Virus record (IMG/VR): IMGVR_UViG_3300027887_000463
Location: 9,371 to 73,370 of that record
DNA length: 64,000 nucleotides
Source of the DNA: a virus
Strand: one strand, 5' to 3'
The stretch's first letter is position 1, and every line of letters begins with the position of its first letter. Positions 26,501-62,437 of this stretch are shown piece by piece. The notes under the pieces were generated by a model, which saw nothing but the letters and a program-made list of their open reading frames with translations, was not told the DNA's origin and made no database searches. Position numbers and translations under genes: made by a program.

Positions 26501-27291
26501 CAATCGTTGGACAAAAAGTTGGTATTAATAAAACTCCAGTGACATATGCTCTTGAGGTCGATGGCGATGTAGACTTGGATAGTACTCACGTATATAGATT
26601 GGCTGGGGCGGATATTAATACGGCTGGCACATTAACTAATGTAGCGTATGAAAATCAGGCAAATACCTTTACTCAAAATAATCTATTCAATGGAACGGTT
26701 AATACCTTCTCCAGCAACGTTGTAGTCAGCGGAACATTGACAGCAAGAGCTACCAAGAATTATTTTGGTACCGCAAATTCTACTATATCCGTTAATGGTA
26801 TGTCGGTATATGGGTCTGGAAATACACGTGTAGTTGTTGAAGCTACGTCTGGTAATGCTGAAATTAATTTAGTACAAAGCACCAATACCTGGGCTATTTA
26901 TACTGGAGCAGGTTCTCTATTCTTCTACAATGGAGGAAATAGGGTTGAAATAGATACCTCTGGAAATGCTATCTTTGCCGGAGATGTTACAGCAAATGGT
27001 TCTCCATCCGATATGGTGTTGAAGATGAACATCAAGGATATGAAGCCTGCTCTGGATAAGATTCTGTCTATGCGACCCGTTGAATTTGACTGGAATCCAG
27101 AAAAGATTGAACGAAGAAAAGGACATGATGTGGGTCTTATTGCCCAAGAGGTTGAGAAGATTGCTCCAGAGTTGGTAACAACTGGGCAGGATGGTATCAA
27201 GAGAATTCATTACGATAAGGCAATACCACTTCTTATCGCAGCTATAAAAGAACTAAAGGATAGGTTAGACAATGTCGGTAGAGCTGAATAA
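17566..27291 (+). CDS. giant tail fibre protein with C-terminal S74 intramolecular-chaperone domain
   Basis: 3241 aa. The C-terminus SDMVLKMNIKDMKPALDKILSMRPVEFDWNPEKIERRKGHDVGLIAQEVEKIAPELVTTGQDGIKRIHYDKAIPLLIAAIKELKDRL matches the Peptidase_S74 (endosialidase-type chaperone) pattern. The upstream part consists of many fibre-type repeats. Confidence 0.8.
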   Translation: MASFLLKRTTDSIAYGTKVKNGRYVVGAYVVLYNSTTSTLIGQTQTDKYGRWYIIINTSTPDPGIYQVRFYGSGLISAEPPDGDWEFVEIVDTTAAQQGAVTYRGIWKVGTQYYGSAIYHEAVKAPDGKYYYSIADSLGVQPPNAGSWTYFSDQFASVATDLLLAQDVAVGRTITLGTALEDGGAGGILQTAGVTGLRSGTGGFYVKGSGLSELRIGTVDGANLVSGLLWDGPNNIFEIRSKNFSIDQYGNVTITGLITATSGLIGGWTIGPTSLYSNSGAGVGMSSGDWPFYAGDTNPANAEFRVSNAGALYASNATISGSISASSGVIGGWIIGPTYLYSTNVGLAPYDYPVFAGADYSSRASAPFRVNTAGSIYSISGIIGGWALDTNTLTALTNGQIRTGSSGTYITLDRNYLQSSTYISGNQGFRITSSTADAEFNNIVARGTFRASVFAIDEVNATGGTMMVTDAAEVVSGLTTPNDLSTTWYLCARKTYTNQAAMFGGPGTATGYVIRLKFADQAVNGVTDIWATRTSAAAVDGGTYWRFTVQNATVNSQNKNIYKGTAAVGYGTSTSKKIILTSDLGGSAVTPYIDMFTTGSSPWNGVTTNLRLGNLTGITDPSYGTLPSGTYGLYADNAYLKGAIVAASGLIGGWNIGSNYLYSTAGNGEGLAPLDYPFFAGAQYASRASAPFRVNTTGAIYSVSGIIGGWNLTPSQIFARSLVGSGMVSMYGFQASSDWWYGGFELKDWATWRTGNKARYHGFFGMSDNGSPPTKPEIVFYVGATTNTSPRSDAAFYIDMDGGMRFGGTQTQPGMTWDPNTNELTLSGIITATQGKIGGWNIGATSLYAGTGSSTVGLASSGGYAIYAGSATPSAAPFRVDPAGNVWATAGFIGGDDSSTGWEITTGSIATTLNGGEMFLSTVNLERAYASILGIDNYFAGLWTYYTGPIIPGSHEAYSSVNASTTSNVPVIFAGADTKYPVIGTSSIPFYVDAYGNFYTKITEYLQTAYETTSISGLTLSPTTPKNMRIESLIPRSFNESGSGGGLVYESSTGEYKSFTYTSASVTWGGFDFIYTLLNCTSDVGNIVVPVGGRIFARRSVTTINDGGAFSLSTYGPRGVYIGGTNGSSIPLLRVEQYDSDAGTDYQSRAVEIYHYSKFHGSTQPHYAQWIIGGGYGSYRGLSVYADSTGWTPTASGQDTIRGVEADTYAETTAGSNYALAGVAQGGIVAVGIYASATGGGSLGSYAGIFANAPTRFDKQLQIAEISSPTTPGTGYGYLYAKSDNLIYWKSDAGIEYDLTGASSASGITSINTLTSTAQTLVVGTAGTGFNIVSTGSTHTFNLPFAGISTSGIVSTGVQTFSGQKTFNNNVHINGNLVFDGTYTIYPQDATVANDLTIMGGVGSGSGASGGILYLMGGEGNGIGDTGIVSMAYNGTSLGGVVIGSNVLTAGYLLDVYGDIRGYNINAITALKLNGADINTAGTLSNVAYLNQANRFTARQGIFSVAPQLVVSGLTNSEIEVRSTSGGPASISFYNGTDFWQFGHATTVGYYLFQYNSSTKMSINSAGQMTINRIGTPTPLATLDVNGNAYIATGLDVPEGPVHIGAAVGAFTASGITFDKANQSQLVNVWGIDAANSTTSNPGYWGIYSVDANGNASQSYDIRATHDIAIKYDTDNTHSGTFKVWRGNTLGGGTGVFTLDATGQATLVSGLTLGTYLQLPEISAPTTPSSGFGLLYAKSDSKLWFKSDTGQEYNLTASGVTGPAGSNSYVQYNDNGIFGGTSNFEWVNASNSLLITGSMQISKATSGTIWALNSFTNGLGRVLELENSYATVAIEGGPRQYFRATLTGEGGNESFDLSAIAGIVENGDAFDTYQGALAFYYFGGEGTAVTEGARLGSDGMFNMWKNASVSGLIRIKEINAPTTPPSTYGYLYAGTDSKLYWANDLGTTYDLTASGTSGGGISSVGSPAATQVAYWASSTALSGHIGFTYLPGTSALSVSGLIALGSIPSSTGILRIPNNNSIGWRNAANSGDYTLALNSSNLFAFSNSLTVTGGTTISTTHTVTQSTITGNTPAFDGSATWNNSAVTFRGIEFAITTGGAGYQTTSTLLRLRTDSGDRFYVQANGATLIGLAGSDLTINNSTVYATGATVYTGDNLHVGVSDGQAGITFHGASSANKWGFYKLTSTYDFVLYNYTSTRNVLRFAEAAGNLTTLYANMVIEGTTGFNANGETAQLSIGDTNHYAKAVYGSGLAYVTATNEDFTYFAGSTFIYRLGGTGLLTIKELTAPTTTALSGYGYLYANTADGKLYWKDDAGTVYDLTLGSSLPADNITGLGASNRVAYFTGNYTISGNNNFTYNGSTISVSGLLDYNYTTADTHWNLGTRALTLHGTGGADVGYTQIAMYGDSTGERPGFVMGRLGPEFYINVVNTTNRVFSNSFAGLTTMISVSGLALGTQSGNADLMVFGQKVGINRTPTAYALEVDGDINLEAGHILRYAGTDAFAGYTPTSRTLTLTPGAGIGIAPGGAQDLSANRSWTVTVSGTIGATATWNGQVISSTYLDANIAYKNASANITADWIFDGSTYQGITVGGESENGVVRFKTVGSYGTLTSLDLASDYTWYLPNASGVIALTKDLNAYSPATRTLTLVPGGGVGITPGGAQDLSANRSWTLTASGITVLQGGTGATTLTGWVYGNGSSAMTATTTPTFGAGSTWNGNAISSTYLDANIAYKNAANTFSLSQTISADLIFSGANRTIYSLDAATASALYIRAGSSSTSGGAGANLFVCGGPGNGAGTDGNVLLAWDGGSIGAVAIGQGTVTATYLLDVAGSIRSSSSINAVTSFLLNGASLNTGGTLSNVAYKDATNLFTGAMNGFSQTVSVSGLLDYNYTAADTRWNLGTRAVVIIGTGGSDVGYNQLQLLGGSTGERPGLSIGRAVGELGISIANQTNRIFLNSAAGIATFFDTTGILLGTQSGNADLAIVGQKVGINKTPVTYALEVDGDVDLDSTHVYRLAGADINTAGTLTNVAYENQANTFTQNNLFNGTVNTFSSNVVVSGTLTARATKNYFGTANSTISVNGMSVYGSGNTRVVVEATSGNAEINLVQSTNTWAIYTGAGSLFFYNGGNRVEIDTSGNAIFAGDVTANGSPSDMVLKMNIKDMKPALDKILSMRPVEFDWNPEKIERRKGHDVGLIAQEVEKIAPELVTTGQDGIKRIHYDKAIPLLIAAIKELKDRLDNVGRAE
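18345..20260 (+). repeat. degenerate intragenic repeats (SGxIGGW...LYS / APFRVN..G.IY) in the fibre gene; coordinates approximate
   Basis: Copies seen in the translation are SGLIGGWTIGPTSLYS, SGVIGGWIIGPTYLYS, SGIIGGWALDTNTL, SGLIGGWNIGSNYLYS, SGIIGGWNLTPSQIF and QGKIGGWNIGATSLYA. They are interleaved with APFRVNTAGSIYS, APFRVNTTGAIYS and APFRVDPAGNVWA. Confidence 0.7.
21355..24525 (+). repeat. four dispersed copies of a ~36-aa motif within the fibre gene; coordinates approximate
   Basis: The four copies are EISSPTTPGTGYGYLYAKSDNLIYWKSDAGIEYDLT, EISAPTTPSSGFGLLYAKSDSKLWFKSDTGQEYNLT, EINAPTTPPSTYGYLYAGTDSKLYWANDLGTTYDLT and ELTAPTTTALSGYGYLYANTADGKLYWKDDAGTVYDLT. Confidence 0.75.
25132..25570 (+). 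repeat. 40-bp perfect direct repeat marking a larger segmental duplication inside the fibre gene
   Basis: cctggaggagcacaagatctttcagctaatcgatcttgga occurs at 25132-25171 and again at 25531-25570. Larger diverged duplicated blocks are ~24650-25060 vs ~26197-26610 (VSVSGLLDYNYT...ALEVDGD) and ~21750-22060 vs ~25860-26170 (...YLLDV.G.IR...GTLSNVAY). Confidence 0.85.
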
Positions 27292-37747: not shown

Positions 37748-37820
37748 GTTTTGGCCCGGAAAAAGTCGATTTGGCAACATTTAATTTCCGATTTTTTTAG
37801 GCCTATTTAGCGCCCTTAAG

Positions 37821-37853
37821 GTAAAAAAAATAAAAGGGGGATTTCTCCCCCTT
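37821..37853 (-). terminator. rho-independent terminator of the lipoprotein gene
   Basis: On the - strand, hairpin AAGGGGGA-GAAA-TCCCCCTT (plus-strand coordinates 37834-37853) is followed by TTTTATTTTTTTT. Confidence 0.7.
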
Positions 37854-37855
37854 AT

Positions 37856-38206
37856 CTATTGCCACGAAGTTGACACAGACACGACACACGTATCGATTGG
37901 CTGATCTCGGCGCCATTGGATCATATCCTCTTCACCTGGCCAAAGGTCCTCACCTTCGAGGGTAACGGTTGTATCTGCATAGCCAAGAAAGAAGGTTACC
38001 CGAACATTTGGGGCTACGGCATCTCCGACGTTCTTATATCGAACGTAGCAACCCCAGTTCAGACCATCCTGGAACACCTCACCCGAATTCCACGTCCCGT
38101 CGTCAGTGATCAGCAGAATGGGGCCGAGTTCATCGGAAGCTTCCGTACCGAGATCAGAACAACCGACCACGAACAGAGCGAGCACAAACAACACGACGTA
38201 TTTCAT
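37856..38206 (-). CDS. lipoprotein (moron-like)
   Basis: 116 aa. The signal peptide with lipobox is MKYVVLFVLALFVVG-C. The gene is visibly GC-richer than its neighbours and has its own promoter-like region and terminator. Confidence 0.7.
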   Translation of the reverse strand: MKYVVLFVLALFVVGCSDLGTEASDELGPILLITDDGTWNSGEVFQDGLNWGCYVRYKNVGDAVAPNVRVTFFLGYADTTVTLEGEDLWPGEEDMIQWRRDQPIDTCVVSVSTSWQ

Positions 38207-46265: not shown

Positions 46266-46294
46266 TTGACTTTTAATTGCTTTTTTCGTATCAT
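46266..46294 (+). promoter_or_regulatory. sigma70-like promoter TTGACT-17 nt-TATCAT of the RNAP gene
   Basis: TTGACT at 46266-46271, a 17-nt spacer, TATCAT at 46289-46294, then AAAAAGGTG and the ATG at 46314. The track ORF start (TTG at 46266) is the -35 element itself. Confidence 0.6.
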
Positions 46295-46313
46295 AGACAA
46301 AAAGGTGTACTAC

Positions 46314-49300
46314 ATGGTAAATAAGCTAGATCCAGGTCTCCAGTCTAAGAACATCCAAGAAGCTATAGCAAATGTGATTAAATCACAGTTTCCTATTCAG
46401 GGTCGATATCAAACCTTGGAGCTTGTTGGGCCCCTAACAATTCAAGATGATTTAGATGATCAAGATTTTCCTGCTCAGCGTGAAGCCAAGCTCAGCGGAA
46501 GATCCTGGCAAGTTCCTGTGTACGGAACTTTCCGCCTCACTGATAATAAAACTGGAAATGTTATTGATGAAGCTAAGGATATAAAGGTCGCCAATATTCC
46601 TAAGCTTACGGATCGTTTCTCCATGCTCATCGAAGGTAATGAATATACTACGATGAATCAATTTCGTCTCAAGCCAGGAATTTATACTCGTAAAAAAGCT
46701 AACGACGAAATGGAGTCTCAATTTAATCTTGCCGTAGGTTATAACTTCAAAATGATGATGGATCCGGCAGATGGTATCTTCTATTTATATATTGGAAACC
46801 AGAAGTTCCACCTGTATACCCTGCTTCGTGCTTTTGGCGCCTCAGAAAACGAGATGATTAAATCCTGGGGCAATGCTCTGTTTGATAAAAACAAAAATGC
46901 TGGCCTCAACGAAGAGGGAAAAGAAATACCTCTGATGTGGGAGAAGTTGAAGAGACAAAAACTTCCATACGAAGAAGCTCTCAATGCTTTAAAGGATTAT
47001 TTCGATAAGACCAGAATTGATGTTGATACCACAGAAATTACCCTTGGTCGTGGAGTAGATCGTGTTACTCCAGATGCATTACTTCTTACTTCATCTAAAC
47101 TCTTACGTGTTCTACGTGGAGACGAGCCAGAAGATGAGCGCGATAGCCTAGTCTTCAAAGATCTCTATACCGTCGATGATCTTGTTCAAAAACATATCGA
47201 GAAGCGTGCTCCGAATATTCAAAAGAATCTTTTAGCCAGAACAGACCATAAGCAATCAATAAGAGAAATCATCTCACCAGATACTTATACCAAAGATATT
47301 AAGTCTTTTTTCACGCAAGGTGACTTAAGTAACCCATCCCCACAGACTAACCCCGTCGAGATGTTGGGCGAGTGGCGGAAGACTACTATCACAGGCACGG
47401 GTGGTATTCAGAGTTCACATGCCATCACCTTCAAAACTCGTGACATTCACCCAACACACTTGGGTTTTGTTGATCCTCTTAATACTCCAGAGTCGGGTAA
47501 AGTAGGTGTAACCCTTCCTCTAGCTATGCATGTTGAGAAACATGGAAAAGATATTAAGACACGATTGGTTACTCCAGAAGGAAAAGATATATTTGCCACA
47601 CCAGTAGAATTCTACAAAATGAAGGTCGGATTTCCAGATCAGCATGTTGAGGGTAAAGCTAAAGGCACCATGATTAAGGCGATGTATCGTGGGCAATCTG
47701 TGGTTCTTCCTGCCAAAGATATTGATGCATATATTCTTGACCCAACAAGTATGTTTGCTTGGACAACTAACCTTGTTCCATTCTTAGGACATAACTCGGG
47801 TAACCGCGCCCTCGTGGCCGCTAAAATGGTAACTCAAAGTGTCCCATTGAAAGCTCCAGAAACTCCTCTGGTAAAAGTTGTTGGACAAACCGGAGAAACG
47901 CTTGATTCAGTATTAGGCACGTTCTTAAAACCTAAGGTTCCTAAAGGATTTGGAACAGCCACTGTAATGAAGATCGATGATGACTACATTCATATAAGAA
48001 ATGAAAAGGGCGATCGTCATAAAGTTGGTTTATACAAAGACTTCCCGCTAAATCAAGAATCTTTTATTAATTCACGAGTTCTAGTTGATATCGGGCAGAA
48101 AGTCAAGGAGGGTGAACCTCTAGCGGATACTAACTTTTCAGACAAGAGTGGAAACTTTGCTCCTGGTGTAAATGTCAATGTTGCATATATGCCTTGGCAT
48201 GGATATAACTACGAGGACGGTATTGTTGTTACAGATTCTCTTTCCAAACGTTTTACATCAACTGTAATGTTGAAAAAGAATCTGCAGGTAGGGAAGGATA
48301 GTATTCTAGACCTAAAGAAATTTGTTTCATATTATCCTAAAGAATTGACGGTTGCCAACATTGAGAAAATGGATGATACAGGAGTAATAAAGGAGGGCGT
48401 TCGTATTGAGCCCGGTGAAACACTTATTGCTCATCTAAGCAAAATGGATCTAACGGATACACAAAAGATCCTAAAAAATATGAATCGTGTATTATCCAAT
48501 CCTTATCGTAATCAATCTCTTACCTGGGATGGAGAAAATCCAGGTGTTGTAACCCACGTTAGAAAAGTAGGAAATACTTATCAAATTCATGTGAAGGAAG
48601 AGCAACCACTCAAGGTTGGGGATAAGCTAGCCGCTCGGTATGGGGATAAAGGTATTGTTACGAAGATCATTTCAGATTCCGAAGCACCCCATACCAAAGA
48701 TGGAAATCGTATAGATATGATGGTTAATATTCATGGTGTAGTAGGCCGTATGAATATGGGGCAGCTACTTGAAGCAGCTGCTGGTCGAATCGCTATGAAG
48801 ACAGGCAAGCCTTTCTTAGTAAAGAACTTTGCTGACCGAGATTATCTATCTGATATTATGGCTGAAATGAAGAAGTTAAAACTTGAACCTAATGAGACGC
48901 TTCTGGATGGAGCAACGGGTAAGCCATTTGAAAAACCAGTCTTCTGGGGCAATAAGCATTATCTAAAGCTGATGCATGTAGTTGATCATAAGTACAAAGC
49001 TCGTGGAATCCCCGGATCTTATGATGCAAATGAGCAACCCGTCCATGGCGAGGTCGGAGGACAATCAGTTGATCCTCTACAGATGTATTCGTATCTTGCG
49101 CACGGTGCACGAGAGAATCTATATGAATTTACCGCGGTGAAAGGTCAGAAGAATGACGAGTATTGGCGTGCGCTACAGCTCGGTCTTCCGCCTCCTCCAC
49201 CCCAAAGAAACTTTGTCTTTGATAAGTTCATTAATTATATCAAGGCAGCTGGGGTTAATGTTGAGAAGAATGGAACTCGGTTTAAACTATTCCCAGCCAC

Positions 49301-52300
49301 CTCAGATGATATGTTAAAATGGTCTGCTGGCGAGCTTACAGATCCTGGTCATATGTTACGTGGAAAAGATCTTAGTGAAATTAAGGGTGGTTTATACGAC
49401 CCGAAATTAACGGGAGGGCTGCGAGGTACTAACTGGACCCACTTCAAACTAGAAGAGCCGATCCCCAATCCATTATATGAAAATGCAGTTAAGTCAATCT
49501 TAGGGCTAAATACACCTGCATTTGAACGTATCATCAATGAAGATGATAAAGATTCAAAGATGAAAGGTAACCAGCGTATAGCCAAAATGCTTTCGGATAT
49601 TGATATAGATGAAGAATTAGCCAAAGCTAAGGACGCCCTAAAGACAGCTGGACCTACACAAGTTAACACTTTGAACAAAAGGATTCGTTTCCTATCAGTG
49701 TTGAAGGAGCGTAATTTACGTCCTGAAAAAGCATATATGATGGAATTGATACCAGTACTTCCTCCAATTTATAGGCCAGTTTATCCATTACCTTCCGGAG
49801 ATACACAGAATTCTCCAATTAATTATCACTATCGTGACGTAGCTGTGTTGAATCAGTCTATAAAAGATATAAAAGCACAAGGTCATTTGATAGATGAGTT
49901 GGAACAGAACAGAAAGAATAGATCTGACTTATACAAATCTGTAAAAGCTTTAATGGGATTAGCAGAGCCCATCACCTTTACTACTCGTCAATATGAAGGA
50001 CTTCTTGGAACTCTTGCCGGAGATTCTCCAAAGCAAGGATTCATTCAGAACAAGTCCTGGTCGAAACGTCAAGATTTATCGGCTCGGTCCACGATCACAG
50101 TGGAACCTTCGCTCGGTATCGATCAAGTTGGATTGCCTGACGTCATGTTGAAAGATCTCTTTAAACCGTTTGTTATGAGAGAAATTGTACGCCAAGGTTA
50201 CAAACCAACTGAAGCCTTAGAACAGATAAAAACCTGGACTCCTGTAGCGGAACAAGCTCTGAATAATGCTATTAAACAGCGGCCCGTTATGCTTAACCGG
50301 GCACCATCTCTTCATAAGCATTCAGTACAGGCATTCTGGCCACAGAGATTTGAAGGACAAAGTATTCGTGTAAGTCCATTGACAGCAAAAGGATTTAACT
50401 TTGACTTTGATGGCGACACCATGTCAGTACACGTTCCTGTGTCTGAAAAAGCTGTGGAAGAAGCTAAAGGCATGCTGCCAACAAAGAATCTCTACAAAGC
50501 CGGCGATCGTCAGCATATGATTAATATTGAACAGGATTACCAGCTTGGTCTTTATTATTTATCACAGCTCGGAGCAGATACTGGAAAACGATTTTCTTCT
50601 ATTAGCAAGGCAATAAAGGAAGTTAAGGATCGTAATACTACCTTTACTTTAGATGGTAAAAAGATGAGTATCGGACAATGGGAAATTAACGACCCACTTC
50701 CTGATGCTTTGAAAGATTATACGCGACTCATGGATTCAAAAGCCGTCAAAGGTTTAGTAGATACATTATTTATGAAATATCCCGGTTATCTTGGAACTGT
50801 TATTGATACCTGGAAGGAGCTCGGAAGAAACTACGCAGTTCAAAGAGGTAGTACCGTGTCCATTACAGATATGGTCGTTGATCGCAGTTACAGGGATAAG
50901 ATCTTAAAAGATTATGAAGCTAAAATTAAGCCTGGTATGGATAAATATGAAGTCTCAAAGATCTATGGTGATGCTAAAGCTGAGATGGAAGAGGCTCAAG
51001 AAAAGCTTCTAAAGGGGAAGAACAACTTTTATGATATGTTACAAGCTGGAAGTACTTCGAAGAAGGGTCAGGTTACACAGATCCTTTCCATGCCGGGCAT
51101 TATGATGGACGTTCACGGAGAGCCAATTCCACATCCTGTAAAGAAATCTTGGTCAGAAGGTCTTGATACATTTGATTATTGGAACCAGTCTTATGGTGCC
51201 CGTAAAGGTGTTGTGGATCGTTCCGTTAATACTCAAGATTCTGGAGCTTTAAATAAAGAACTTCTATTTACTACTAAGAGTTTATTAGTTATTGAAGAAG
51301 ATTGTGGAACTCCAGAGGGTATTATATTAGATACTGATTCCAAAGAAGTTATGGATCGATTTCTTTCAAGTGATGTTCCGGGCGTTGGTAAGAGAAATGA
51401 TCTTGTTACAAATGAGCGTATGTTAAAAGCGAAAACAAAGAAAATAGAAAAACTTCCAGTACGATCATCTCTCACCTGTGAAGCTGAGGGCGGAGTTTGT
51501 CAGAAATGTTATGGCCTTATGGCAAACGGACAACTTGCTCGTATAGGAGAAAATGTAGGAGTTATTGACTCTGAGGCTGTTACTGAACGTTCTACTCAAT
51601 TACAAATGCAGACTTTCCATACTGGGGGTGTTGCAGGCGGAGGGGCAGCAGTAACATTAGGGTTCCCTAGATTGGAAGAGCTCTTGTATGTTCCACAGAA
51701 GATTCGAGACGCAGCGGTTCTTTCGCGAGAAGATGGTATTGTTACTCAAATTACAGAGAATCCAGCAGGAGGAAAAAATCTCTTCATTGGTCGTAGTGAG
51801 TACTATATTCCAAGAGAGAGACGTCTAGACGTTTCCGTCGGCTCTCGAGTAAAACGTGGTGATCGTTTAACAGATGGTTCCATTAAGCCACAGGAATTGT
51901 CGGAATTAAAAGAGCATCTTACAGCCCAGCAATATATAGCAGATGAAATCAATAAGATTTATGAGAATAAATTTGCAAGGAAAACTTTTGAAACCGTTTT
52001 ACGTGGTGTAGCAAATAATGCCGAAATAACAAATATTCCTGAAGAAGTAGAAGCAAGTGCTAATTTTATGCGGGGCGATACAGTACCGATAACTCGTGTA
52101 AAGAAATTAAATAGAGAGCTACTTGCTGAAGGAAAACCACAGATAGAATATAAGCCATTCTTTAAATCTATCTCTGTACTCCCATTACATAGTGACGATT
52201 GGCTAAGTAGATTAACAACAAACAGATTAAAACAAACTATCCAAGAGGCAGCTTCTATGGGTATGGAGAGCGATGTTAAGGGCACAGACCCGATGTCTGC

Positions 52301-52361
52301 TTATCTATATGGACTTGATTTTGGAAAAGATGTTGATCCAACAAAGAAGAAATTCTATTAA
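46314..52361 (+). CDS. fused beta-beta' multisubunit-type DNA-dependent RNA polymerase (single chain)
   Basis: The beta blocks come first: RDIHPTHLGFVDPLNTPESGKVG, LVPFLGHNSGNRALVAAKM, MPWHGYNYEDGIVV, RYGDKGIVTKI...GRMNMGQLLE and KLMHVVDHKYKARG. The beta' blocks follow: VLPPIYRPV, KRQDLSARSTITV, NRAPSLHKHSVQAF, NFDFDGDTMSVHVP, YGARKGVVDRSVNTQDSGALNKEL and TQLQMQTFHTGG. Confidence 0.9.
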   Translation: MVNKLDPGLQSKNIQEAIANVIKSQFPIQGRYQTLELVGPLTIQDDLDDQDFPAQREAKLSGRSWQVPVYGTFRLTDNKTGNVIDEAKDIKVANIPKLTDRFSMLIEGNEYTTMNQFRLKPGIYTRKKANDEMESQFNLAVGYNFKMMMDPADGIFYLYIGNQKFHLYTLLRAFGASENEMIKSWGNALFDKNKNAGLNEEGKEIPLMWEKLKRQKLPYEEALNALKDYFDKTRIDVDTTEITLGRGVDRVTPDALLLTSSKLLRVLRGDEPEDERDSLVFKDLYTVDDLVQKHIEKRAPNIQKNLLARTDHKQSIREIISPDTYTKDIKSFFTQGDLSNPSPQTNPVEMLGEWRKTTITGTGGIQSSHAITFKTRDIHPTHLGFVDPLNTPESGKVGVTLPLAMHVEKHGKDIKTRLVTPEGKDIFATPVEFYKMKVGFPDQHVEGKAKGTMIKAMYRGQSVVLPAKDIDAYILDPTSMFAWTTNLVPFLGHNSGNRALVAAKMVTQSVPLKAPETPLVKVVGQTGETLDSVLGTFLKPKVPKGFGTATVMKIDDDYIHIRNEKGDRHKVGLYKDFPLNQESFINSRVLVDIGQKVKEGEPLADTNFSDKSGNFAPGVNVNVAYMPWHGYNYEDGIVVTDSLSKRFTSTVMLKKNLQVGKDSILDLKKFVSYYPKELTVANIEKMDDTGVIKEGVRIEPGETLIAHLSKMDLTDTQKILKNMNRVLSNPYRNQSLTWDGENPGVVTHVRKVGNTYQIHVKEEQPLKVGDKLAARYGDKGIVTKIISDSEAPHTKDGNRIDMMVNIHGVVGRMNMGQLLEAAAGRIAMKTGKPFLVKNFADRDYLSDIMAEMKKLKLEPNETLLDGATGKPFEKPVFWGNKHYLKLMHVVDHKYKARGIPGSYDANEQPVHGEVGGQSVDPLQMYSYLAHGARENLYEFTAVKGQKNDEYWRALQLGLPPPPPQRNFVFDKFINYIKAAGVNVEKNGTRFKLFPATSDDMLKWSAGELTDPGHMLRGKDLSEIKGGLYDPKLTGGLRGTNWTHFKLEEPIPNPLYENAVKSILGLNTPAFERIINEDDKDSKMKGNQRIAKMLSDIDIDEELAKAKDALKTAGPTQVNTLNKRIRFLSVLKERNLRPEKAYMMELIPVLPPIYRPVYPLPSGDTQNSPINYHYRDVAVLNQSIKDIKAQGHLIDELEQNRKNRSDLYKSVKALMGLAEPITFTTRQYEGLLGTLAGDSPKQGFIQNKSWSKRQDLSARSTITVEPSLGIDQVGLPDVMLKDLFKPFVMREIVRQGYKPTEALEQIKTWTPVAEQALNNAIKQRPVMLNRAPSLHKHSVQAFWPQRFEGQSIRVSPLTAKGFNFDFDGDTMSVHVPVSEKAVEEAKGMLPTKNLYKAGDRQHMINIEQDYQLGLYYLSQLGADTGKRFSSISKAIKEVKDRNTTFTLDGKKMSIGQWEINDPLPDALKDYTRLMDSKAVKGLVDTLFMKYPGYLGTVIDTWKELGRNYAVQRGSTVSITDMVVDRSYRDKILKDYEAKIKPGMDKYEVSKIYGDAKAEMEEAQEKLLKGKNNFYDMLQAGSTSKKGQVTQILSMPGIMMDVHGEPIPHPVKKSWSEGLDTFDYWNQSYGARKGVVDRSVNTQDSGALNKELLFTTKSLLVIEEDCGTPEGIILDTDSKEVMDRFLSSDVPGVGKRNDLVTNERMLKAKTKKIEKLPVRSSLTCEAEGGVCQKCYGLMANGQLARIGENVGVIDSEAVTERSTQLQMQTFHTGGVAGGGAAVTLGFPRLEELLYVPQKIRDAAVLSREDGIVTQITENPAGGKNLFIGRSEYYIPRERRLDVSVGSRVKRGDRLTDGSIKPQELSELKEHLTAQQYIADEINKIYENKFARKTFETVLRGVANNAEITNIPEEVEASANFMRGDTVPITRVKKLNRELLAEGKPQIEYKPFFKSISVLPLHSDDWLSRLTTNRLKQTIQEAASMGMESDVKGTDPMSAYLYGLDFGKDVDPTKKKFY

Positions 52362-52372
52362 GGTAAAAAAAT

Positions 52373-52398
52373 AAAAGGGGAGTTTCGGCTCCCCTTTT
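52373..52398. terminator. bidirectional rho-independent terminator
   Basis: AAAAGGGGAG-TTTCGG-CTCCCCTTTT forms a 10-bp stem with A/T runs on both sides. It lies between the RNAP stop (52361) and the convergent - strand gene (52405). Confidence 0.75.
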
Positions 52399-52404
52399 AC
52401 TTTA

Positions 52405-53791: not shown

Positions 53792-55960
53792 TTATTTGTT
53801 CACAACGACAACCTTTCCGTCGACCAGTTGAACTTCAAATGACCTTGCATCTGGATTCTCCAGAAGAAGATCTGCCATCTTTGATTCAACTTCCTTTTCA
53901 ATCAATCGACGCATTGGTCGAGCACCATATTCCGTAGAGTAGCCCTTTTCCAAGAACCAGTCTTCGGCTTCTGGTGTAAAGCTCATCGTAAACCGTTCGT
54001 TGATATCGTTTACCATAAGCTTCATGATCTGTCTCATACTGTCCTTATCGAGACGATTAAAGGTAACAATCTCGTCAAGGCGGTTGAGAAACTCCGGCTT
54101 GAAAAAGCTCTTCAACGCCGCCTTAAGATTCTTCTTCATATCATCATCTGCTGATGTTTCAGAGAATCCAAGGTTACGTTTTCCGGCGCTCTCAACACCG
54201 ATGTTTGACGTGATAATGATAATAGTATTTTTGAAACTGACAACCCTCCCTTGAGAATCAGTCAGAATACCATCATCAAAAATCTGAAGAAGCACATTGA
54301 ATACATCCGGATGCGCTTTCTCTATCTCATCAAACAATACAACTGAATACGGCTTCTTACGAACTTTCTCTGTAAGCTTTCCACCGCTATCATCGTATCC
54401 GATGTATCCCGGAGGAGCTCCGATAAGCGAAGAGATGGTGAACCGATCAAAGAATTCACTCATATCCAAACGAATCATTGCCTGTTCCGAATCAAACAGA
54501 TATCTAGCCAACTGTCTGGCCATCTCTGTTTTTCCAACCCCAGTAGGTCCAATGAAGAGGAAGGTGCTTGGGCGTTTATCGCTTTTGACACCGGTGCGTT
54601 TCCGTTTAATTGAGTTGGATACAGCTTGAATAGCATCTGGCTGTCCAACCAATCTTCCAGAAAGATCGGTATCAATGTGCTTTAACTTTTCCCGTTCCGA
54701 CTTATTGAGATTGGTGATAGGAACACCGGTTGTCTTCGAAACTACTCCTCGAATGATATCATTGTCGACCTGGACTGTGCCAGCGAGTTTTGCGACTGCC
54801 GCAGCTTCATCCAAAACGTCAATGGCTTTATCAGGAAGGAAACGATCCTGAATATAGCGTTCGGTGAGTTCAATAATGGTTGGAATAGCTTCCTGTGGAA
54901 TTTCCACCCCGTGATAAAGTTCATAGACATATTTGATTTGGCCGAGAATCTGTGCGGTTTCCTCCAGGGTTGGTTGCTCAATCATCACCTTCTGAAATCT
55001 CCGCTCCAACGCTCCATCCTTCTCGACATGCTTGCGAAATTCATTGGCAGTAGTTGCGCCAATGCATTTAATGTATCCACGTGATAGTGCCGGCTTGATG
55101 ATGTTTGCAGCATCACCAGTTCCCTCAGTACCTCCCGTACCCATAAGGGAATGCATCTCATCGATAAACAGAATGATATCAGGATTCTTCATCAGTTCCT
55201 TGATAATCATCTGCATCCTCTGCTCGAATTGTCCCCTGTACTGCGTTCCCGCAATAATGGAGTTGATGTCAAGTGAAAGGATTCTTTTGTTGAGAAGCAT
55301 TTTGGGAACATTACCCGCAGCGACGCGCATTGCCAGACCTTCGACAATAGCGGTCTTTCCCACGCCTGGCTCACCGATCAACGCAGGGTTGTTCTTCTTC
55401 CTGCGTGCTAGGATCTCGATGACACGTGAGATTTCGGATTCGCGTCCGATGACCGGATCTAACTTATTCTCCTGAGCCAGAATCGTCAGATCCATCGAAA
55501 AAGCATTTAGTGCCGGAGTGTTTTGTGAACTTGTCCGATCACTTGATACCTTTTTCTTTGGTTCTCCGACTTCAGTGTAGCCAACTTCATTGAGCATCTT
55601 GGACGCTACACTGTCTGGTGTACGATAGAGACTGTGAACTAAAGCATCTGCTTCTATTGTTCCGGTTATCGATATGAACTTGGCGAAGTTCAGAATATAA
55701 CGCATCGAATTCGAAACTTTCGGAAGAGGGTTCGTTACTGCAATATCCCTCTGTATTACACGGAATCGATCCGACAAGAGTGTACGAAGTTTACCAATGT
55801 TTGCCCCATTCTTGTTTAAAAGCGTAAGGCCTTCGTTATCACCTTGCTCCACGATTGCAAAAAGTAAGACTTCACTGGAAATTGTATCTTGGTTAAGCTC
55901 CGTCGCTTTCTTTCGAGCTAATCCAAAGATTTCCTCTGTCTTTGTTGAATACTGATTCAT
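53792..55960 (-). CDS. ClpA/ClpC-type two-ring AAA+ unfoldase
   Basis: It has a Clp_N-like N-domain. NBD1 carries GEPGVGKTAIVEGLA and ILFIDEMHSLMG. NBD2 carries FIGPTGVGKTEMARQLA, VVLFDEIEKAHPDVFNVLLQIFDDG and GARPMRRLIE. There is no long ClpB-type middle domain. I set the start at the ATG at 55960 (AAAAGGAG-6 nt-ATG), not the track start at 56017. Confidence 0.85.
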   Translation of the reverse strand: MNQYSTKTEEIFGLARKKATELNQDTISSEVLLFAIVEQGDNEGLTLLNKNGANIGKLRTLLSDRFRVIQRDIAVTNPLPKVSNSMRYILNFAKFISITGTIEADALVHSLYRTPDSVASKMLNEVGYTEVGEPKKKVSSDRTSSQNTPALNAFSMDLTILAQENKLDPVIGRESEISRVIEILARRKKNNPALIGEPGVGKTAIVEGLAMRVAAGNVPKMLLNKRILSLDINSIIAGTQYRGQFEQRMQMIIKELMKNPDIILFIDEMHSLMGTGGTEGTGDAANIIKPALSRGYIKCIGATTANEFRKHVEKDGALERRFQKVMIEQPTLEETAQILGQIKYVYELYHGVEIPQEAIPTIIELTERYIQDRFLPDKAIDVLDEAAAVAKLAGTVQVDNDIIRGVVSKTTGVPITNLNKSEREKLKHIDTDLSGRLVGQPDAIQAVSNSIKRKRTGVKSDKRPSTFLFIGPTGVGKTEMARQLARYLFDSEQAMIRLDMSEFFDRFTISSLIGAPPGYIGYDDSGGKLTEKVRKKPYSVVLFDEIEKAHPDVFNVLLQIFDDGILTDSQGRVVSFKNTIIIITSNIGVESAGKRNLGFSETSADDDMKKNLKAALKSFFKPEFLNRLDEIVTFNRLDKDSMRQIMKLMVNDINERFTMSFTPEAEDWFLEKGYSTEYGARPMRRLIEKEVESKMADLLLENPDARSFEVQLVDGKVVVVNK

Positions 55961-56361
55961 AGTACTCCTTTTGTGAATAAAATTTGGAAGGCTGCGATCC
56001 GCAATCCTTGATAACATACCGTCCGATTATTAGGCCATCGGGGCCTATTATCATTCCTACTATTCCATACTGCTACCTGATCACGAAACGTAACCCTGGA
56101 ATGGGAAATGCATTCCGCGATTGGGATGACAACCTTCCCTTGAAAGGGATAACCTGGCCAGGACTAGAGCTTCTCCACAGCCCCTTTGCTAGGGTAGGGC
56201 CGTGTGTCTGAAAAGTACAGATACCCCTCCCCAGGTCCTTTGCCTGGGCGTTAGGGCTCATCAAAAGTCGAAGCGACTTTCTATAGCTTGATAGCTTCTT
56301 CAAACCAAATTGGCCGAAGAATCCTCATGCGCCCACCTCTACTCGTAGCCAAGCTCCCTAA
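55961..56361 (-). other. long GC-enriched, hairpin-rich intergenic leader (candidate structured RNA)
   Basis: About 400 nt without a credible ORF in an otherwise gap-free genome. Several 6-bp-stem hairpins are present (for example TAGGCC-ATCGG-GGCCTA at 56031-56047, GGAATG..CATTCC ~56098-56116 and CCCAGG..CCTGGG ~56230-56248). Confidence 0.3.
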
Positions 56362-56529
56362 TTACTTCTTATCCTCAAGCTTCTTCAGAATCTTCATCCG
56401 CTCTTTTGTTGCGCCCGAGTCTTTTCCCAGTTTTCCGTCCAGACGATTCAGTCGGTCTGAAAGGGTCAACTTCTCGTACAATTCCTGGCGGACCTTCGCT
56501 TCTTCCTGCTTCTGTTTCCGGCTTTTCAT
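56362..56529 (-). CDS. candidate 55-aa coiled-coil protein in an alternative frame of the phosphatase tail
   Basis: GAGGT-8 nt-ATG at 56529. Product MKSRKQKQEEAKVRQELYEKLTLSDRLNRLDGKLGKDSGATKERMKILKKLEDKK. It looks more protein-like than the overlapping phosphatase tail (…PETEAGRSEGPPGIVREVDPFRPTESSGRK…). Confidence 0.35.
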   Translation of the reverse strand: MKSRKQKQEEAKVRQELYEKLTLSDRLNRLDGKLGKDSGATKERMKILKKLEDKK

Positions 56530-57226
56530 ATGATATTACCTCGACTTGATTTCCGTCTAGTTTAACAACTTGTTTTGTGAATTGAAGGCAGTCGATATCC
56601 CAATTGGAACCTTTTTGTTTTATCTTTGTGACCGGTGTATGGCCAAAGATCTGGGTTAATCCTTCCACGGGATTGAAGTCAACAGCAAAGTCAGACCAAA
56701 ATATACCTGCGTTTTGATCCACTCCCCCACGACTCATTCCAATGTTATATACTAACCCATCATCTACAGATCTCCAGGATTCTTGTAAAAAGAATTCAAT
56801 CAAATCAATGAAATCTTCTCTCTCATAGAGATCGGGGGTAGTTTCGAATGCCTCTCGAAGAAGCTGTGAATTAAGCCCTGCGTGTGTGATGAGTACCTTA
56901 TTTTCCTTATCCAGAATAAAAGGTTTCATCAGTTTCCACATACGGCTTTTTAATGCTATGATTTTTGCGTCGAAACTTGATGCATATCCCGAACACCGCA
57001 TACGCCTCATGAGATACGATAGCTCATGATTACCAAAAACACATTCAGTGGTTCCTCGTTCAATATCATTTAGAACCAACTCTAGAAGCTTGAACTGTTC
57101 TGTTCGTGAAAAGTAAAAGGAATCGAGCAGATCTCCAGTTAAAATCAGCTTCTCTTTTGTTGAACTCTTTACTTCGTGATAGAAGTTGATCTCACCATGG
57201 AGATCTCCGATTACGATTGCTTTCAT
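56375..57226 (-). CDS. calcineurin-like metallophosphoesterase (lambda Ser/Thr phosphatase type)
   Basis: Motifs IGDLHGE, TGDLLDS, FGNHE, ITHAGL and IFGHTP occur in the canonical order. The last ~48 codons may not be genuine (see the ORF at 56362). Confidence 0.75.
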   Translation of the reverse strand: MKAIVIGDLHGEINFYHEVKSSTKEKLILTGDLLDSFYFSRTEQFKLLELVLNDIERGTTECVFGNHELSYLMRRMRCSGYASSFDAKIIALKSRMWKLMKPFILDKENKVLITHAGLNSQLLREAFETTPDLYEREDFIDLIEFFLQESWRSVDDGLVYNIGMSRGGVDQNAGIFWSDFAVDFNPVEGLTQIFGHTPVTKIKQKGSNWDIDCLQFTKQVVKLDGNQVEVISYEKPETEAGRSEGPPGIVREVDPFRPTESSGRKTGKRLGRNKRADEDSEEA

Positions 57227-58036: not shown

Positions 58037-58044
58037 GTAAATAA

Positions 58045-58066
58045 AAGGGCACGGTTAGGTGCCCTT
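58045..58066 (-). terminator. rho-independent terminator overlapping the Pnkp-like stop codon
   Basis: AAGGGCAC-GGTTAG-GTGCCCTT. On the - strand it is followed by TTTTATTTAC. The TAA stop (58055-58057) sits in the loop. Confidence 0.6.
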
Positions 58067-60223
58067 CTCCTTGTAATACATATTTCTCAATGTGATGATA
58101 TCTCGTGATAGCTCTTCTTCAGTTCTGGTTTTGAGCCAGGCATAGAAGTAGTTGGCTTCGGGCGTAACCAATCCCGAGAGATTCACCTGTCGTCTTGCAC
58201 GAACAGCATCCTTCACTACACGCATATGTTTCCAGAAGTTGTAGTAAGGGAGCTTAAGCTTCATCATAAAGCCATTGGAATCCTCAAAGACAAATCCCTC
58301 GATATCCGAGGTAGTTGCCGTTTCACATTCCTTATAGAATTGAAGAAGCTCTTCCTTCGAGTTCAGAGTCTTATACAATTGCTTCGAGCGATGTGGCATA
58401 TTCAGTGAATGGGCAAATGCCAGCATCTCCTGATATGGCAACTTCTCGTAGTCAAGTGTTCTCCGCACTGCATCCAGAAGAACTAATCCCTGTCTGTCGG
58501 GATATGCAATGATATGAGGATCGGTATCTTGATCAACTACTTCGAAGACAAGAGTGACGTTGTGTCCCTTGAGAATTGCTTTGAGATAATCCGGATCTAC
58601 GTTTGTGGTTAATGCCCACACACGCTTGAAGATGTCCGGATAGATTCCCTCAACAGAACTCTTGGAAAGGAAGAGAACCTGATCGGAAGCAGTATCATAA
58701 CCGACCATACCCAGGAATCCATTATACTTCTCGTACACATGGACAGGATATTGAAGGTTAACCGTTTCAATCTTAGTCTCATCTCTTTCGTTCACATTGA
58801 AAAACTTATTATATGAACGAGCCACAATTTCATTTGTCACCGTATTGACGAACAGTCCTCTGGCTTTTACTGTCATTCCATCCCAAATCTTCTTGTAGAA
58901 CGCACCACGGTTGAAGTTAAACGAGGAGATATCTCCGAACTTGCGCTCATTGATGTGTCTGCTCTTCCTTAAATCCTCCACGAACGAGGAAGGACCGAGA
59001 GTGGTTTCCACTTTTATATTTTTTGGACGAAATACAGTATTCGGAATCTCCCATGTCTTGATCTCCAAAGAATCACGATAGAGAGTAACAGCCCGAAGAT
59101 TTCCTCCGAACTCAATGTTACCCTGCAGATTATAATACTTTGGGTTGATCTTTATAGGCGATTCCGTAACGTTTCTATGGCCAGATATCTGGATGGCATC
59201 CGGCGGAGAATTCTTCTCCCACGATTCAGCAACCTCCAGCATATCTTCATAGCGTCCCACACCTTTGATAAATTGTTCGGTAGCAATTGTGATGAGGTCT
59301 TCAGGGAGCTTAGAGATGCCTCCGTGGGTTACCAGAACGAGCTGATTTCCCAAACGGAAATATGCAACCTGAGCAAACTTCCTACACAACTGCCGTACGG
59401 ATCCCTTATCCAAAGCTGCGGACTCGAGTTCTCTTTTGGTTTGGAAAAGGAATTCATTGGAACGAATCTTTTCCTCTTCCTGGTTGGCCCAGTATCTCAA
59501 CCACCGCTCGTGATTCCCCTCCAGAAGAAGTATATTAGGCTTTTCATAATTCTCGATAAGCCAACGTACCACCTCGGTATTCTGAATCCCACGATCGATA
59601 AAATCACCAACAAAGATGTAATAGTGATTTTCGTGATAGCCAACTGCATCGAACCACACTTTCAGCGGTTCATAACATCCGTGAATATCTCCGATAATGT
59701 GCACCTGTTCATATTCAAATGCAAGCGGTGCATAATCAAAGACGCCCATATAGTCAGCCGGCTTGACAACCTGGACATAACCAGGAACCGGTTGACTCTT
59801 TAGTCGAGCTTCGATATTATCGAGCACAAATTCCGGAACCCACTTATATTCCGGACGGGTCTTATTCTGAAGTTTGCATTGTTCCAGAGGAACATCGGAG
59901 AAGTCGATACAATAGATACGGTATCGATACTCTCCTGCCAACTTCTTATACTTGGCAAAATCGCTGGCCTTGGAGTGAGTAGCATCAATGAACACCAGTT
60001 CTCCGCGTTCCATGCGAGTTTCCAACATTTCGAATAGAAGTCCCCAAACCTTTCGGTCATTCTCCGGGCTAATCGCGTACACTCCCTTAGGAGTAAGTAC
60101 CGGCGCCTGGAGTTGGAGACGAATGTCATCAGCGCACAATGTGTAAGGGCGCAGGCCTTCCTGTTCGAGCCAGGTAGACTTTCCGCATCCGACATTACCG
60201 CGGAGAAGATAGAGGTGTCTCAT
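58055..60223 (-). CDS. polynucleotide kinase-phosphatase with C-terminal ligase-like domain (Pnkp-like RNA repair enzyme)
   Basis: The N-terminal P-loop is RGNVGCGKST. The central metallophosphatase has IGDIHGC, VGDFIDRG, EGNHE, VTHGGI and SGHRN. The C-terminal part carries the nucleotidyltransferase motif I-like YEKYNGFLG. This order matches bacterial Pnkp. Confidence 0.65.
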   Translation of the reverse strand: MRHLYLLRGNVGCGKSTWLEQEGLRPYTLCADDIRLQLQAPVLTPKGVYAISPENDRKVWGLLFEMLETRMERGELVFIDATHSKASDFAKYKKLAGEYRYRIYCIDFSDVPLEQCKLQNKTRPEYKWVPEFVLDNIEARLKSQPVPGYVQVVKPADYMGVFDYAPLAFEYEQVHIIGDIHGCYEPLKVWFDAVGYHENHYYIFVGDFIDRGIQNTEVVRWLIENYEKPNILLLEGNHERWLRYWANQEEEKIRSNEFLFQTKRELESAALDKGSVRQLCRKFAQVAYFRLGNQLVLVTHGGISKLPEDLITIATEQFIKGVGRYEDMLEVAESWEKNSPPDAIQISGHRNVTESPIKINPKYYNLQGNIEFGGNLRAVTLYRDSLEIKTWEIPNTVFRPKNIKVETTLGPSSFVEDLRKSRHINERKFGDISSFNFNRGAFYKKIWDGMTVKARGLFVNTVTNEIVARSYNKFFNVNERDETKIETVNLQYPVHVYEKYNGFLGMVGYDTASDQVLFLSKSSVEGIYPDIFKRVWALTTNVDPDYLKAILKGHNVTLVFEVVDQDTDPHIIAYPDRQGLVLLDAVRRTLDYEKLPYQEMLAFAHSLNMPHRSKQLYKTLNSKEELLQFYKECETATTSDIEGFVFEDSNGFMMKLKLPYYNFWKHMRVVKDAVRARRQVNLSGLVTPEANYFYAWLKTRTEEELSRDIITLRNMYYKEKGT

Positions 60224-60690
60224 TATGACTTCCTTAACATAGTTAAGATTTGATTTCCTTCTCGTTTTGGAGTATCCATTGCGAAATGGGTTAGTTCTGC
60301 TTTTATTTTTTCGAGTAATTCAAATCCCTGTTCGGGACGAGTTATTTCTCGACCATGAAAGCGAACTATCAAACGAATAGGATGTCCCTTTTCGAGTAGT
60401 TCATTGATATGCCGAGCTTTTGTTTGAAGATCATGGTCGGCAATATTAATATTGAATCGAAACTCTTTTAGATCTGGCGCAGGTTTCGTCTTATGCGCTT
60501 TTTTCTGTTGATACTGAAACTTCTCAAAGTCTTGAATCTTGCAGACACCGCGCCCAACTTCTACAAGATCCAAACTCCTTGTATGTGCTAATTTTATAGC
60601 CTCGGTCGTAGCTAGAGTTCCGAGATTATTTCCGTTCTCGTCAATAACAAGAACGGGAGTGTCCGTGATCTGATTATTTACACGGTTCAA
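60223..60690 (-). CDS. infC: translation initiation factor IF-3 homolog
   Basis: 155 aa and collinear with bacterial IF3. The N-domain reads VLVIDENGNNLGTLATTEAIKLAHTRSLDLVEV...VCKIQDFEKFQYQQKK. After a basic linker the C-domain reads KEFRFNINIADHDLQTKARHINELLEKGHPIRLIVRFHGRE. Confidence 0.8.
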   Translation of the reverse strand: MNRVNNQITDTPVLVIDENGNNLGTLATTEAIKLAHTRSLDLVEVGRGVCKIQDFEKFQYQQKKAHKTKPAPDLKEFRFNINIADHDLQTKARHINELLEKGHPIRLIVRFHGREITRPEQGFELLEKIKAELTHFAMDTPKREGNQILTMLRKS

Positions 60691-62369: not shown

Positions 62370-62407
62370 AGAAATTCTCCTTTGTTACTTTCTTATACCA
62401 TGAAAGT

Positions 62408-62437
62408 AAAAAAAATGAGGGGGAGTTTATCTCCCCC
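62408..62437 (-). terminator. rho-independent terminator of the SPFH gene
   Basis: On the - strand, hairpin GGGGGAG-ATAAA-CTCCCCC (plus-strand coordinates 62419-62437) is followed by TCATTTTTTTT. Confidence 0.65.

Follow-up and report, generated by a model that had tools for sequence, protein, structure and literature searches.

Structure modelling and comparison with relatives show that the gap in front of a clp gene in an uncultured phage is the template for a predicted, conserved, and highly structured stretch of the sense transcript. The gap lies in IMG/VR virus record IMGVR_UViG_3300027887_000463, of which we analysed one stretch of 64,000 nucleotides (nt; positions 9,371 to 73,370, hereafter the window), and it covers 401 nt (55961..56361, sense on the minus strand) from the stop codon of an upstream open reading frame (ORF) to the clp start codon. 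The modelled transcript of this region comprises two self-contained modules, domain 1 and domain 2, each with a closing helix of about 20 bp. Domain 1 was shared by four phage lineages and domain 2 by two, namely the window and L087 (L-numbers denote the loci of relatives, and P-numbers their Clp homologues). Judged from its sequence, the element is real and new, a narrowly distributed structured-RNA motif of a known general kind that fits no described family. Our preferred, albeit tentative, reading is that it may serve as a cis-acting, intercistronic, factor-binding leader or processing element for clp.

Folding and coding potential of the gap

The predicted fold of the gap was strongly strand-specific. 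On the minus strand, the minimum free energy of the whole gap was -150 kcal/mol (z = -4.61 against dinucleotide shuffles, with 0 of 100 shuffles as good), whereas on the plus strand z was -1.42 and 10 of 100 shuffles were as good. Domain 1 had a sense-strand z of -3.8, and domain 2 scored -3.7 in sense versus -0.8 in antisense. The same asymmetry between sense and antisense stability was found in relatives. Together with the seven G-U pairs held by the domain 1 structure model of the window, these asymmetric z-scores in the window and its relatives favour a structure formed by RNA over one formed by DNA.

A preliminary description, made from the sequence alone, had singled out the interval as non-coding, hairpin-rich, and richer in guanine and cytosine (GC) than its flanks. 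Its boundaries were correct, running from the upstream TAA to the clp start with a Shine-Dalgarno (SD) sequence, AAGGAG, before clp. The abundance of hairpins exceeded chance on the minus strand only, and the GC enrichment, although real, was modest (0.489 in the gap compared with 0.419 in the window and 0.444 and 0.424 in the flanking genes; domain 1 alone reached 0.52). The dismissal of the ORFs of 75 aa (plus strand) and 76 aa (minus strand) in the gap as noise also held, as far as sequence can tell, since no reading frame was conserved among the three full-length homologous regions (the window, L001, and L087). A six-frame comparison of these regions yielded no shared peptide, the longest stop-free run on the sense strand of L001 was 28 codons, and the indels that distinguish the gaps of relatives were not multiples of three.

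Selection on the structure

Conservation in relatives had been set beforehand as the check on the proposal that the interval gives rise to a structured non-coding RNA, whether a 5' leader, a riboregulator, or an independent RNA. That proposal was supported: the relatives keep the region, compensatory changes were found in both domains, and the synonymous sites of clp are saturated. Covariance models of domain 1 and domain 2 were each built from the window sequence alone. The domain 1 model matched L001:3763-3967 (44 bits, E 5e-12) and L087:3642-3822 (34 bits, E 6e-9), as well as L227:1665-1776 (38 bits), where only the 5' part is present and the contig ends. In the four-sequence alignment of domain 1, 95% of cells were paired, compared with at most 55% when the 3' partners were slid by one to three columns, and 14 pairs had changed on both sides compared with 5.4 +/- 1.8 after shuffling, where none of 500 shuffles attained as many. 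Pair counts here and below were drawn from three to four lineages (L227 being partial) in alignments fitted to the model. RNAalifold, applied to a three-sequence model-fitted alignment (A7), recovered helices P1, P2, and P3 with 13 compensated pairs, and each sequence folded alone gave the same closing helices, including P1.

The domain 2 model matched L087:3821-3971 alone (36 bits, E 2.5e-6) and found nothing in L001 or L088-L091. Within the domain 2 alignment, 91.8% of cells were paired, compared with at most 48% after sliding, and seven double changes were present. Four-fold degenerate sites of the adjacent clp genes were only 32-40% identical, which places neutral positions near saturation and thus implies that the invariant blocks of the RNA (GGUGG, AGUCG.U.CGACU, and AGCUYUA) are under purifying selection.

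Anatomy of the two domains

Domain 1 (56141..56361, minus strand) is a 221-nt multi-helix junction module closed by the long helix P1. Its helices P1, P2, P3, and P5 were conserved and P4 was variable. The 5' strand of P1, AGGGAGCUUGGCUACGAGUAGAG (56337..56359, minus), begins 2 nt past the upstream stop and pairs with the 3' strand, CUCUAGUCCUGGCCAGGUUAUCCCU (56145..56169, minus). In the window, P1 has 21 pairs in four segments; 8 of the 21 carried compensatory double changes, and 96.8% of cells were paired across three lineages. The 5' arm is followed by a G (UAGAG-G) that was invariant in four lineages and leads into a junction strand, GGUGGGCGC (consensus GGUGGRYGC; 56329..56337, minus), near-invariant in all four. 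P2 (56286..56330, minus) is a hairpin of variable length whose sequence differs in each lineage while its pairing is retained, with five double-change pairs. The sequence UAUAG stands between P2 and P3 in the window.

P3 is conserved in sequence: AAAGUCG-CUU-CGACUUU (56264..56280, minus), followed by UGAYGAG. Its stem is the same in the window, L001, and L227, and L087 differs by one compensatory change from A-U to G-C; the loop varies. Beyond P3, domain 1 of the window continues in the order UGAUGAGCC, the variable region P4, P5, and UGGAGAAG, then returns into P1, such that the 3' half is branched (P4, P5) and has no long hairpin. P5 (56178..56202, minus), with an 11-nt loop containing ACC...AGCAA, was kept in the window and L001, and its counterpart in L087 was recognised by eye only. 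The purine-rich junction strand UGGAGAAG leading into P1 (56170..56177, minus) was conserved, reading GUGGAGAAG in the window, GUGAGGAAG in L001, and CGUGAGAG in L087. The P5 loop (ACC) could form a pseudoknot with the junction (GGU); both strands are invariant and so give no covariation signal.

A single-stranded linker, (U)UUCAAG (56139..56144, minus), joins the domains and was kept in the window, L087, and also L001, where domain 1, linker, and spacer are present and domain 2 is cleanly absent. Domain 2 (55985..56142, minus) is a 158-nt module closed by a 19-bp composite helix. It contains a short hairpin (GGAA..UUCC), a second hairpin, GGUUACG-UUU-CGUGAUC, followed by CAGG, and a variable arm. 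The division into two separable modules with long closing helices adds to what had previously been described for the interval.

Between domain 2 and the start codon lies an A/U-rich spacer of 24 nt (55961..55984, minus), which bears the SD sequence AAGGAG at 55965..55970 and in which AAAAGGAGUACUAUG was the same in the window, L001, and L087. The spacer was mostly predicted to be unpaired in L087 and L001 and partly paired in the window. The clp ATG stands at 55960..55958 (minus) with AAAAGGAG just 5' of it. A weak start-site hairpin (55947..55967, minus) pairs GAGUACU with codons 3-5 (AGUAUUC) and places the AUG in a 7-nt loop. Its predicted pairing probability was high in the window, L087, and L001 (-4.3 to -6.6 kcal/mol), and L088 has an analogous hairpin of different sequence. 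In these three lineages the predicted hairpin has the trait of an RNA thermometer, in which the SD or AUG sits in a weak, meltable hairpin. No alternative pairing of either domain with the SD was found, part of the SD being engaged solely by this local hairpin. The pyrimidine-rich 3' end of P1 was considered as an anti-SD that can pair AAAGGAG, yet merely the outermost part of the 21-bp helix is involved and we rejected it. A scan for sense-strand terminators in the gap returned none, and a promoter scan gave only 9-of-12 matches, which we judged weak and not conserved.

Flanking genes and relatives

The constant downstream neighbour is clp itself (53792..55960, minus), which encodes a 722-aa, two-ring AAA+ protein of ClpC/ClpB-like type (Pfam matches AAA_2, AAA, AAA_lid_9, ClpB_D2-small, and Clp_N; homologues P0001-P0008). 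It lies 3' of the RNA in all three lineages whose sequence covers the downstream flank, and in the window three genes are inserted upstream of the RNA and none between the RNA and clp. On the other side, the upstream stop (TAA/UAA; 56362..56364, minus) ends 2 nt before P1. This tight spacing recurs in L001, L087, and L227, such that P1 starts 2-4 nt past the stop codon in four of four lineages. The upstream gene itself varies: in the window and L227 it is a 55-aa ORF (alternatively, a phosphatase tail), and in L001 and L087 a gene of 94 aa. The 55-aa ORF is rich in lysine and glutamate (56362..56529, minus) and overlaps, in another frame, the last ~50 codons of a 283-aa metallophosphatase ORF (56375..57226, minus), whose C-terminal tail resembles out-of-frame translation, and a frameshift is possible. 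A protein of ~100 aa encoded just upstream had only five homologues and is acidic in our reading of the alignment.

Only a small number of phage-type Clp homologues were found. A Clp identical to that of the window (P0001) occurred on five contigs, and one 82% identical (P0002) on nine contigs, including the 103.7-kb IMG/VR contig that holds L001. Identity was 83% for P0003 (L087), 65% for P0004 (L088), and 55% for P0005-P0008. The gap sequence was identical in all copies of one lineage, and the gap measured 240, 360, and 241 nt in L001, L087, and L088, respectively. The fourth lineage, L227, was reached via the small upstream-encoded protein and holds the 5' half of the element. Two IMG/VR relatives of a wider clade were reached via the RNA polymerase gene, and a search with the N-terminal 135 aa of Clp for further contigs gave no matches. 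A blastn search against INPHARED phages found no similar DNA. Scans for the hairpin and junction motifs in IMG/VR, JGI metagenomes, and GTDB (one genome per species) recovered only the known lineages and chance matches, the latter in GC-rich coding DNA. The domain 2 motif scan picked out 108 IMG/VR stretches, and the domain 2 model (R2) confirmed 0 of the 100 scanned.

At the same position, L088 carries a different RNA that is also structured and stable on the sense strand. The gaps of L088 and L089-L091 (sense z of -2.0 to -4.3) are structured and have no detectable homology to the element of the window. L088 also encodes a tRNA (67 bits) and, ~130 nt upstream of it, a YrlA-like match; the two features occupy L088:1573-1694 and L088:1827-1898. 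The YrlA-like match was sub-threshold (30.8 bits, E 0.009, gathering score 69), and the order of its T-arm and D-arm was permuted. In the phages with 55% Clp identity, another conserved structured RNA (GGGAAGUCUGGAC ... GUCCACAGCCCAA ...) was seen at L089:1604-1860, L090:1600-1850, and L091:1-260, just upstream of a strong sigma-70-like promoter (TTGACA-17-TATACT) driving a DUF5906-clp operon. It had a sense z of -3.9 in L089 and no Rfam match, and it is not homologous to the element of the window.

Proposed role and alternatives

The RNA starts 2-4 nt past the upstream stop and the gap has no conserved promoter or terminator, from which we infer that it is transcribed within a polycistronic mRNA. 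If the RNA is a cis-acting element serving clp, as we prefer, its long closing helices would be stems for processing or insulation, suited to cleavage by an RNase III-type enzyme specific for double strands. They would set clp apart from the variable message upstream of it, and a folded end resistant to nucleases would remain beside the ribosome-binding region, which is open and rich in A/U. A factor, with a protein likelier than a metabolite, could dock at the invariant junction and P3 and thereby set the stability or translation of clp mRNA. Domain 2 would be an optional add-on module, and the weak start-site hairpin, with part of the SD held and the AUG in its loop, could provide a second, local layer of control. 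This reading draws on the strand-specific stability, the homologues recovered with single-sequence models, the compensatory changes, the selection on invariant blocks, the lack of a conserved ORF and of a terminator or conserved promoter in the gap, and the start-site hairpin beside a spacer that is mostly open in L087 and L001. It is also supported by the RNA abutting the upstream stop codon in four of four lineages despite the differing upstream gene, by clp as the downstream neighbour, and by the different structured RNA at the same position in L088.

Several observations weigh against it. No pairing links the modules to the SD and no expression platform was found, such that a regulatory role is deduced rather than seen, and if the role were only one of processing or stabilisation, no conserved multi-helix junction would be required. 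L001 does without domain 2, and simple synteny between closely related phages could account for the unvarying position next to clp. In L089-L091, L222, and L224, which belong to the wider clade, such an RNA is missing and clp adjoins or overlaps the gene before it, which implies that clp does not need the RNA, and models R1 and R2 found nothing near 79 other viral Clp loci or four wider-clade loci. The pair counts, moreover, come from too few lineages for statistics of the R-scape type.

The main rival, which is possible but on balance doubtful, is a stable trans-acting RNA, or RNA pair, cut from the operon transcript. In RNA repair or counter-defence, for instance, it would serve as a ribonucleoprotein scaffold or as a decoy, its ends protected by the closing helices (compare tRNAs, the T4 stable RNAs, and YrlA/YrlB). 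The modules are self-contained with paired 5' and 3' ends, and they are separable, as L001 demonstrates; their conserved junction and hairpin sequences suggest specific recognition, and the lack of a platform reaching the SD also agrees with this alternative. The neighbours include a kinase-phosphatase-Rnl1 RNA ligase fusion, L088 has its tRNA and sub-threshold YrlA-like element, and the same phage carries other large structured RNAs. However, the candidate has no promoter or terminator of its own and sits wall-to-wall between the stop codon and the SD, in single copy and so far always directly upstream of clp where the downstream flank was covered. Nor did we find a tRNA-like module, an Rfam match to Y RNA, or a Ro/TROVE match in the ORFs scanned, and the acidic ~100-aa upstream protein is unlikely to be an RNA binder. 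It is improbable that domain 1 is the aptamer of a ligand-sensing riboswitch that controls the translation of clp or the decay of its mRNA. The element does have the architecture of a large aptamer (~200 nt, with a 4-5-way junction on P1, invariant purine-rich strands, and a variable periphery) and is co-oriented with and directly upstream of a gene. Against this, no Rfam riboswitch model matched at E <= 10, even in a 236-nt search, and a ligand in the junction could hardly control the outer end of a 21-bp P1. In addition, neither a terminator nor an anti-SD alternative was found, and in the window and L087 the whole of domain 2 intervenes before the SD. Presence in four phage lineages is also not a broad metabolic regulon, and the downstream AAA+ unfoldase has no obvious metabolite logic.

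The remaining explanations fared worse. An element that acts as DNA (operator, origin, or packaging site), for instance with the 7-3-7 palindrome AAAGTCG-nnn-CGACTTT as a repressor site, is very improbable. The P3 stem is a perfect, sequence-conserved palindrome whose single change in L087 is symmetric and hence compatible with a dimeric DNA-binding protein, but the strand asymmetry in stability is strong, and the seven G-U pairs in the domain 1 model would be A-C mismatches on the other strand. Furthermore, pairing of P1 across ~190 nt with 8 compensatory changes has no DNA-level rationale, and iteron-type repeats are lacking. We regard it as scarcely credible that the element is a second retron-type template RNA (msr-msd-like) for the retron reverse transcriptase (RT) that the phage encodes at 40479..41363, even though long terminal inverted repeats close domain 1 and the 5' arm is followed by an invariant G (UAGAG-G). 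The RT, 14.6 kb distant, has its own upstream non-coding RNA (ncRNA; 41364..41709), to which the domain 1 model detected no similarity, and a long hairpin of the msd type is absent from domain 1. Similarly negligible is the chance of a short protein-coding gene or a meaningless spacer. ORFs of 75 and 76 aa do exist, but no frame is conserved, indels are not multiples of three, and conserved blocks and compensating helices persist while neutral sites are saturated.

Apart from these alternatives, it is unlikely, though conceivable, that domain 1, alone or together with domain 2, founds a new phage RNA class whose core is specialised for binding or catalysis. If so, it could be a riboswitch-like or protein-sensing switch or a small ribonucleoprotein that gates the synthesis of an AAA+ unfoldase, or it could act in counter-defence. 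Complex conserved RNA folds are rare, each may hide a new ligand, protein partner, or chemistry, and phage genomes are poorly mined. To our knowledge, the control of phage ClpC-like unfoldases is not well described. The element is well defined, with exact boundaries, two modules, a structure model backed by compensation, and a set of invariant nucleotides, although its value is limited by its occurrence in four uncultured lineages only.

Other features of the phage genome

The preliminary description had contrasted the gap with genes otherwise packed with overlaps or gaps of several nucleotides. Other long gaps exist, however, and the genome is not uniformly packed. Two of these (41364..41709 and 42043..42662) are at least as strongly structured as 55961..56361. 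The first belongs to a retron on the minus strand (40479..41709), which comprises a 294-aa RT (40479..41363; NCBIfam retron_St85_RT, 236.2 bits, cutoff 235; PADLOC retron RT models ~1e-70) and, directly upstream, a 346-nt ncRNA (41364..41709) with a 17-bp inverted repeat, GGCUCCGUUUCCUAUGG / CAUAGGGAACGGGGCUU, and a G after the 5' arm. This ncRNA had a z of -9 and no Rfam match. Next upstream is a conserved 110-aa ORF (41710..42042) that was 63% identical in L223, the only one of L222-L225 in which it was seen. The second, a non-coding stretch of 620 nt (42043..42662, minus) between a ViaA-like gene and the 110-aa ORF, folded into a very long, GC-rich closed domain (-228 kcal/mol, z = -6.8) and also had no Rfam match. 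Only its two ends are conserved in the phage of L001 (L223), and the middle may thus be a structured insertion. Adjoining the retron region on its upstream side, 42663..45380 (minus) encodes a RavA-like MoxR AAA+ protein (384 aa) and a ViaA-like VWA protein (519 aa). This pair is syntenic in L222-L225, and an RT homologue beside the ViaA-like gene was seen only in the distant relative L225. Taken together, the clp-associated element, the retron ncRNA, and the 620-nt region suggest that this phage group is unusually rich in large structured RNAs.

Similar elements composed of an A-tract, a GC-rich hairpin, and a T-tract (AAATAAAAGGGG...CCCCTTTT) recur at the ends of gene blocks (37813..37861, 52355..52402, 58039..58072, and 62398..62428) and are probably bidirectional intrinsic terminators. 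Outside the gap, terminator hairpins follow the RNA ligase gene (58039..58072, ending 3 nt before the ATG of a 105-aa gene) and the clp module (52369..52402). The RNA ligase gene encodes the 722-aa kinase-phosphatase-Rnl1 fusion (58055..60223, minus), and a phage IF3 is encoded at 60223..60690 (minus). Homologues of a 2031-aa ORF (46266..52361, plus) in related phages match both Rpb2 and Rpb1 domains (fused beta-beta' RNA polymerase), and with this ORF, the IF3, and the ligase fusion the phage has an unusual set of genes. A 3241-aa ORF (17566..27291, plus) has many diverged direct repeats (45-152 nt) within it, as is typical for repetitive fibres or adhesins.

Comparison with known RNA families

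The preliminary description had been unable to match the interval to a known RNA family, and searches with Rfam and Infernal likewise gave no credible match. At gathering thresholds, Rfam 15 (4227 models) returned 0 matches in the whole window, and relaxed searches (E <= 10 for 1.6 kb and for 236 nt of domain 1; E <= 1 for the whole window) gave only chance-level matches to long non-coding and small RNAs. Nothing was found at the homologous site in L001 or L087, and no credible family emerged from the five related loci scanned. ARAGORN predicted 0 tRNA or transfer-messenger RNA genes in the window. Three resemblances seen by eye were rejected: a hammerhead core (CUGAYGAG after P3), for which GAAA and the stem II/III geometry are missing and which L001 lacks altogether; a K-turn in the internal loop of P1, which is without tandem G-A pairs; and the CR-I of RNase P (GAAAGUC), which here is simply the P3 stem.

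Among large aptamers, the lysine riboswitch (RF00168) in particular offers a possible likeness in architecture, having ~180-220 nt, a P1 closing a 4-5-way junction, purine-rich junction strands, and a position 5' of a gene; as in large aptamers generally, the peripheral helices of our element are variable. The strands adjacent to P1 (AGAGGUGG...GC and GUGGAGAAG) may also be lysine-riboswitch-like. Unlike that riboswitch, the element has a 21-bp P1 and occurs in a few phages only, RF00168 was not listed at E <= 10 in the 236-nt search, and neither form of expression platform (a terminator or an SD-sequestering helix) was found in the gap. ROOL, GOLLD, and raiA are 'ornate' RNAs whose function is not known; they are often phage-carried and widely distributed, and each has an Rfam model (PMC12286853). 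The element resembles them in being complex, covarying, and phage-borne, and differs in its narrow distribution, in matching none of their models, and, relative to ROOL and GOLLD, in its smaller size. With retron msr-msd RNAs it shares the long terminal inverted repeats that close the RNA (P1, 21 bp) and the invariant G right after the 5' arm. It differs from them in having no adjacent RT (the sole RT found is the distant one), no long msd hairpin, and no covariance-model similarity to 41364..41709.

YrlA/YrlB (RF02553) are Y-RNA-like RNAs inside the rsr-rtcBA RNA-repair operon. Like them, the element has paired ends, is embedded in an operon near RNA-repair genes, and consists of two different RNAs in tandem. 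Unlike them, it lacks a tRNA-like T-arm/D-arm module: the sequence has no GGUUCGA-type T-arm, no covariance model of YrlA or Y_RNA matched it, and Pfam scans covering the nearby genes and several other ORFs of the window gave no Ro/TROVE match. RNase III sites between cistrons are known from the early and late mRNAs of phage T7, where they are single hairpins of ~50-60 nt, and from the lambda N leader; their presumed role is to keep cistrons apart, stabilise the ends of the RNA, and expose the ribosome-binding site that follows. The element resembles these sites in lying within a polycistronic phage transcript and in having irregular helices of about two turns (~20 bp; 21 and 19 pairs), in an intercistronic gap without promoter or terminator; cleavage itself is predicted. 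It departs from the T7 sites in that its helices close multi-helix domains of 160-220 nt with invariant junctions. Given that testable defining features are missing in each case, the element belongs to neither the RNase III-site nor the Y-like RNA family. In function, it would nevertheless appear to resemble most closely the intercistronic RNase III sites of phages or the operon-embedded Y-like RNAs.

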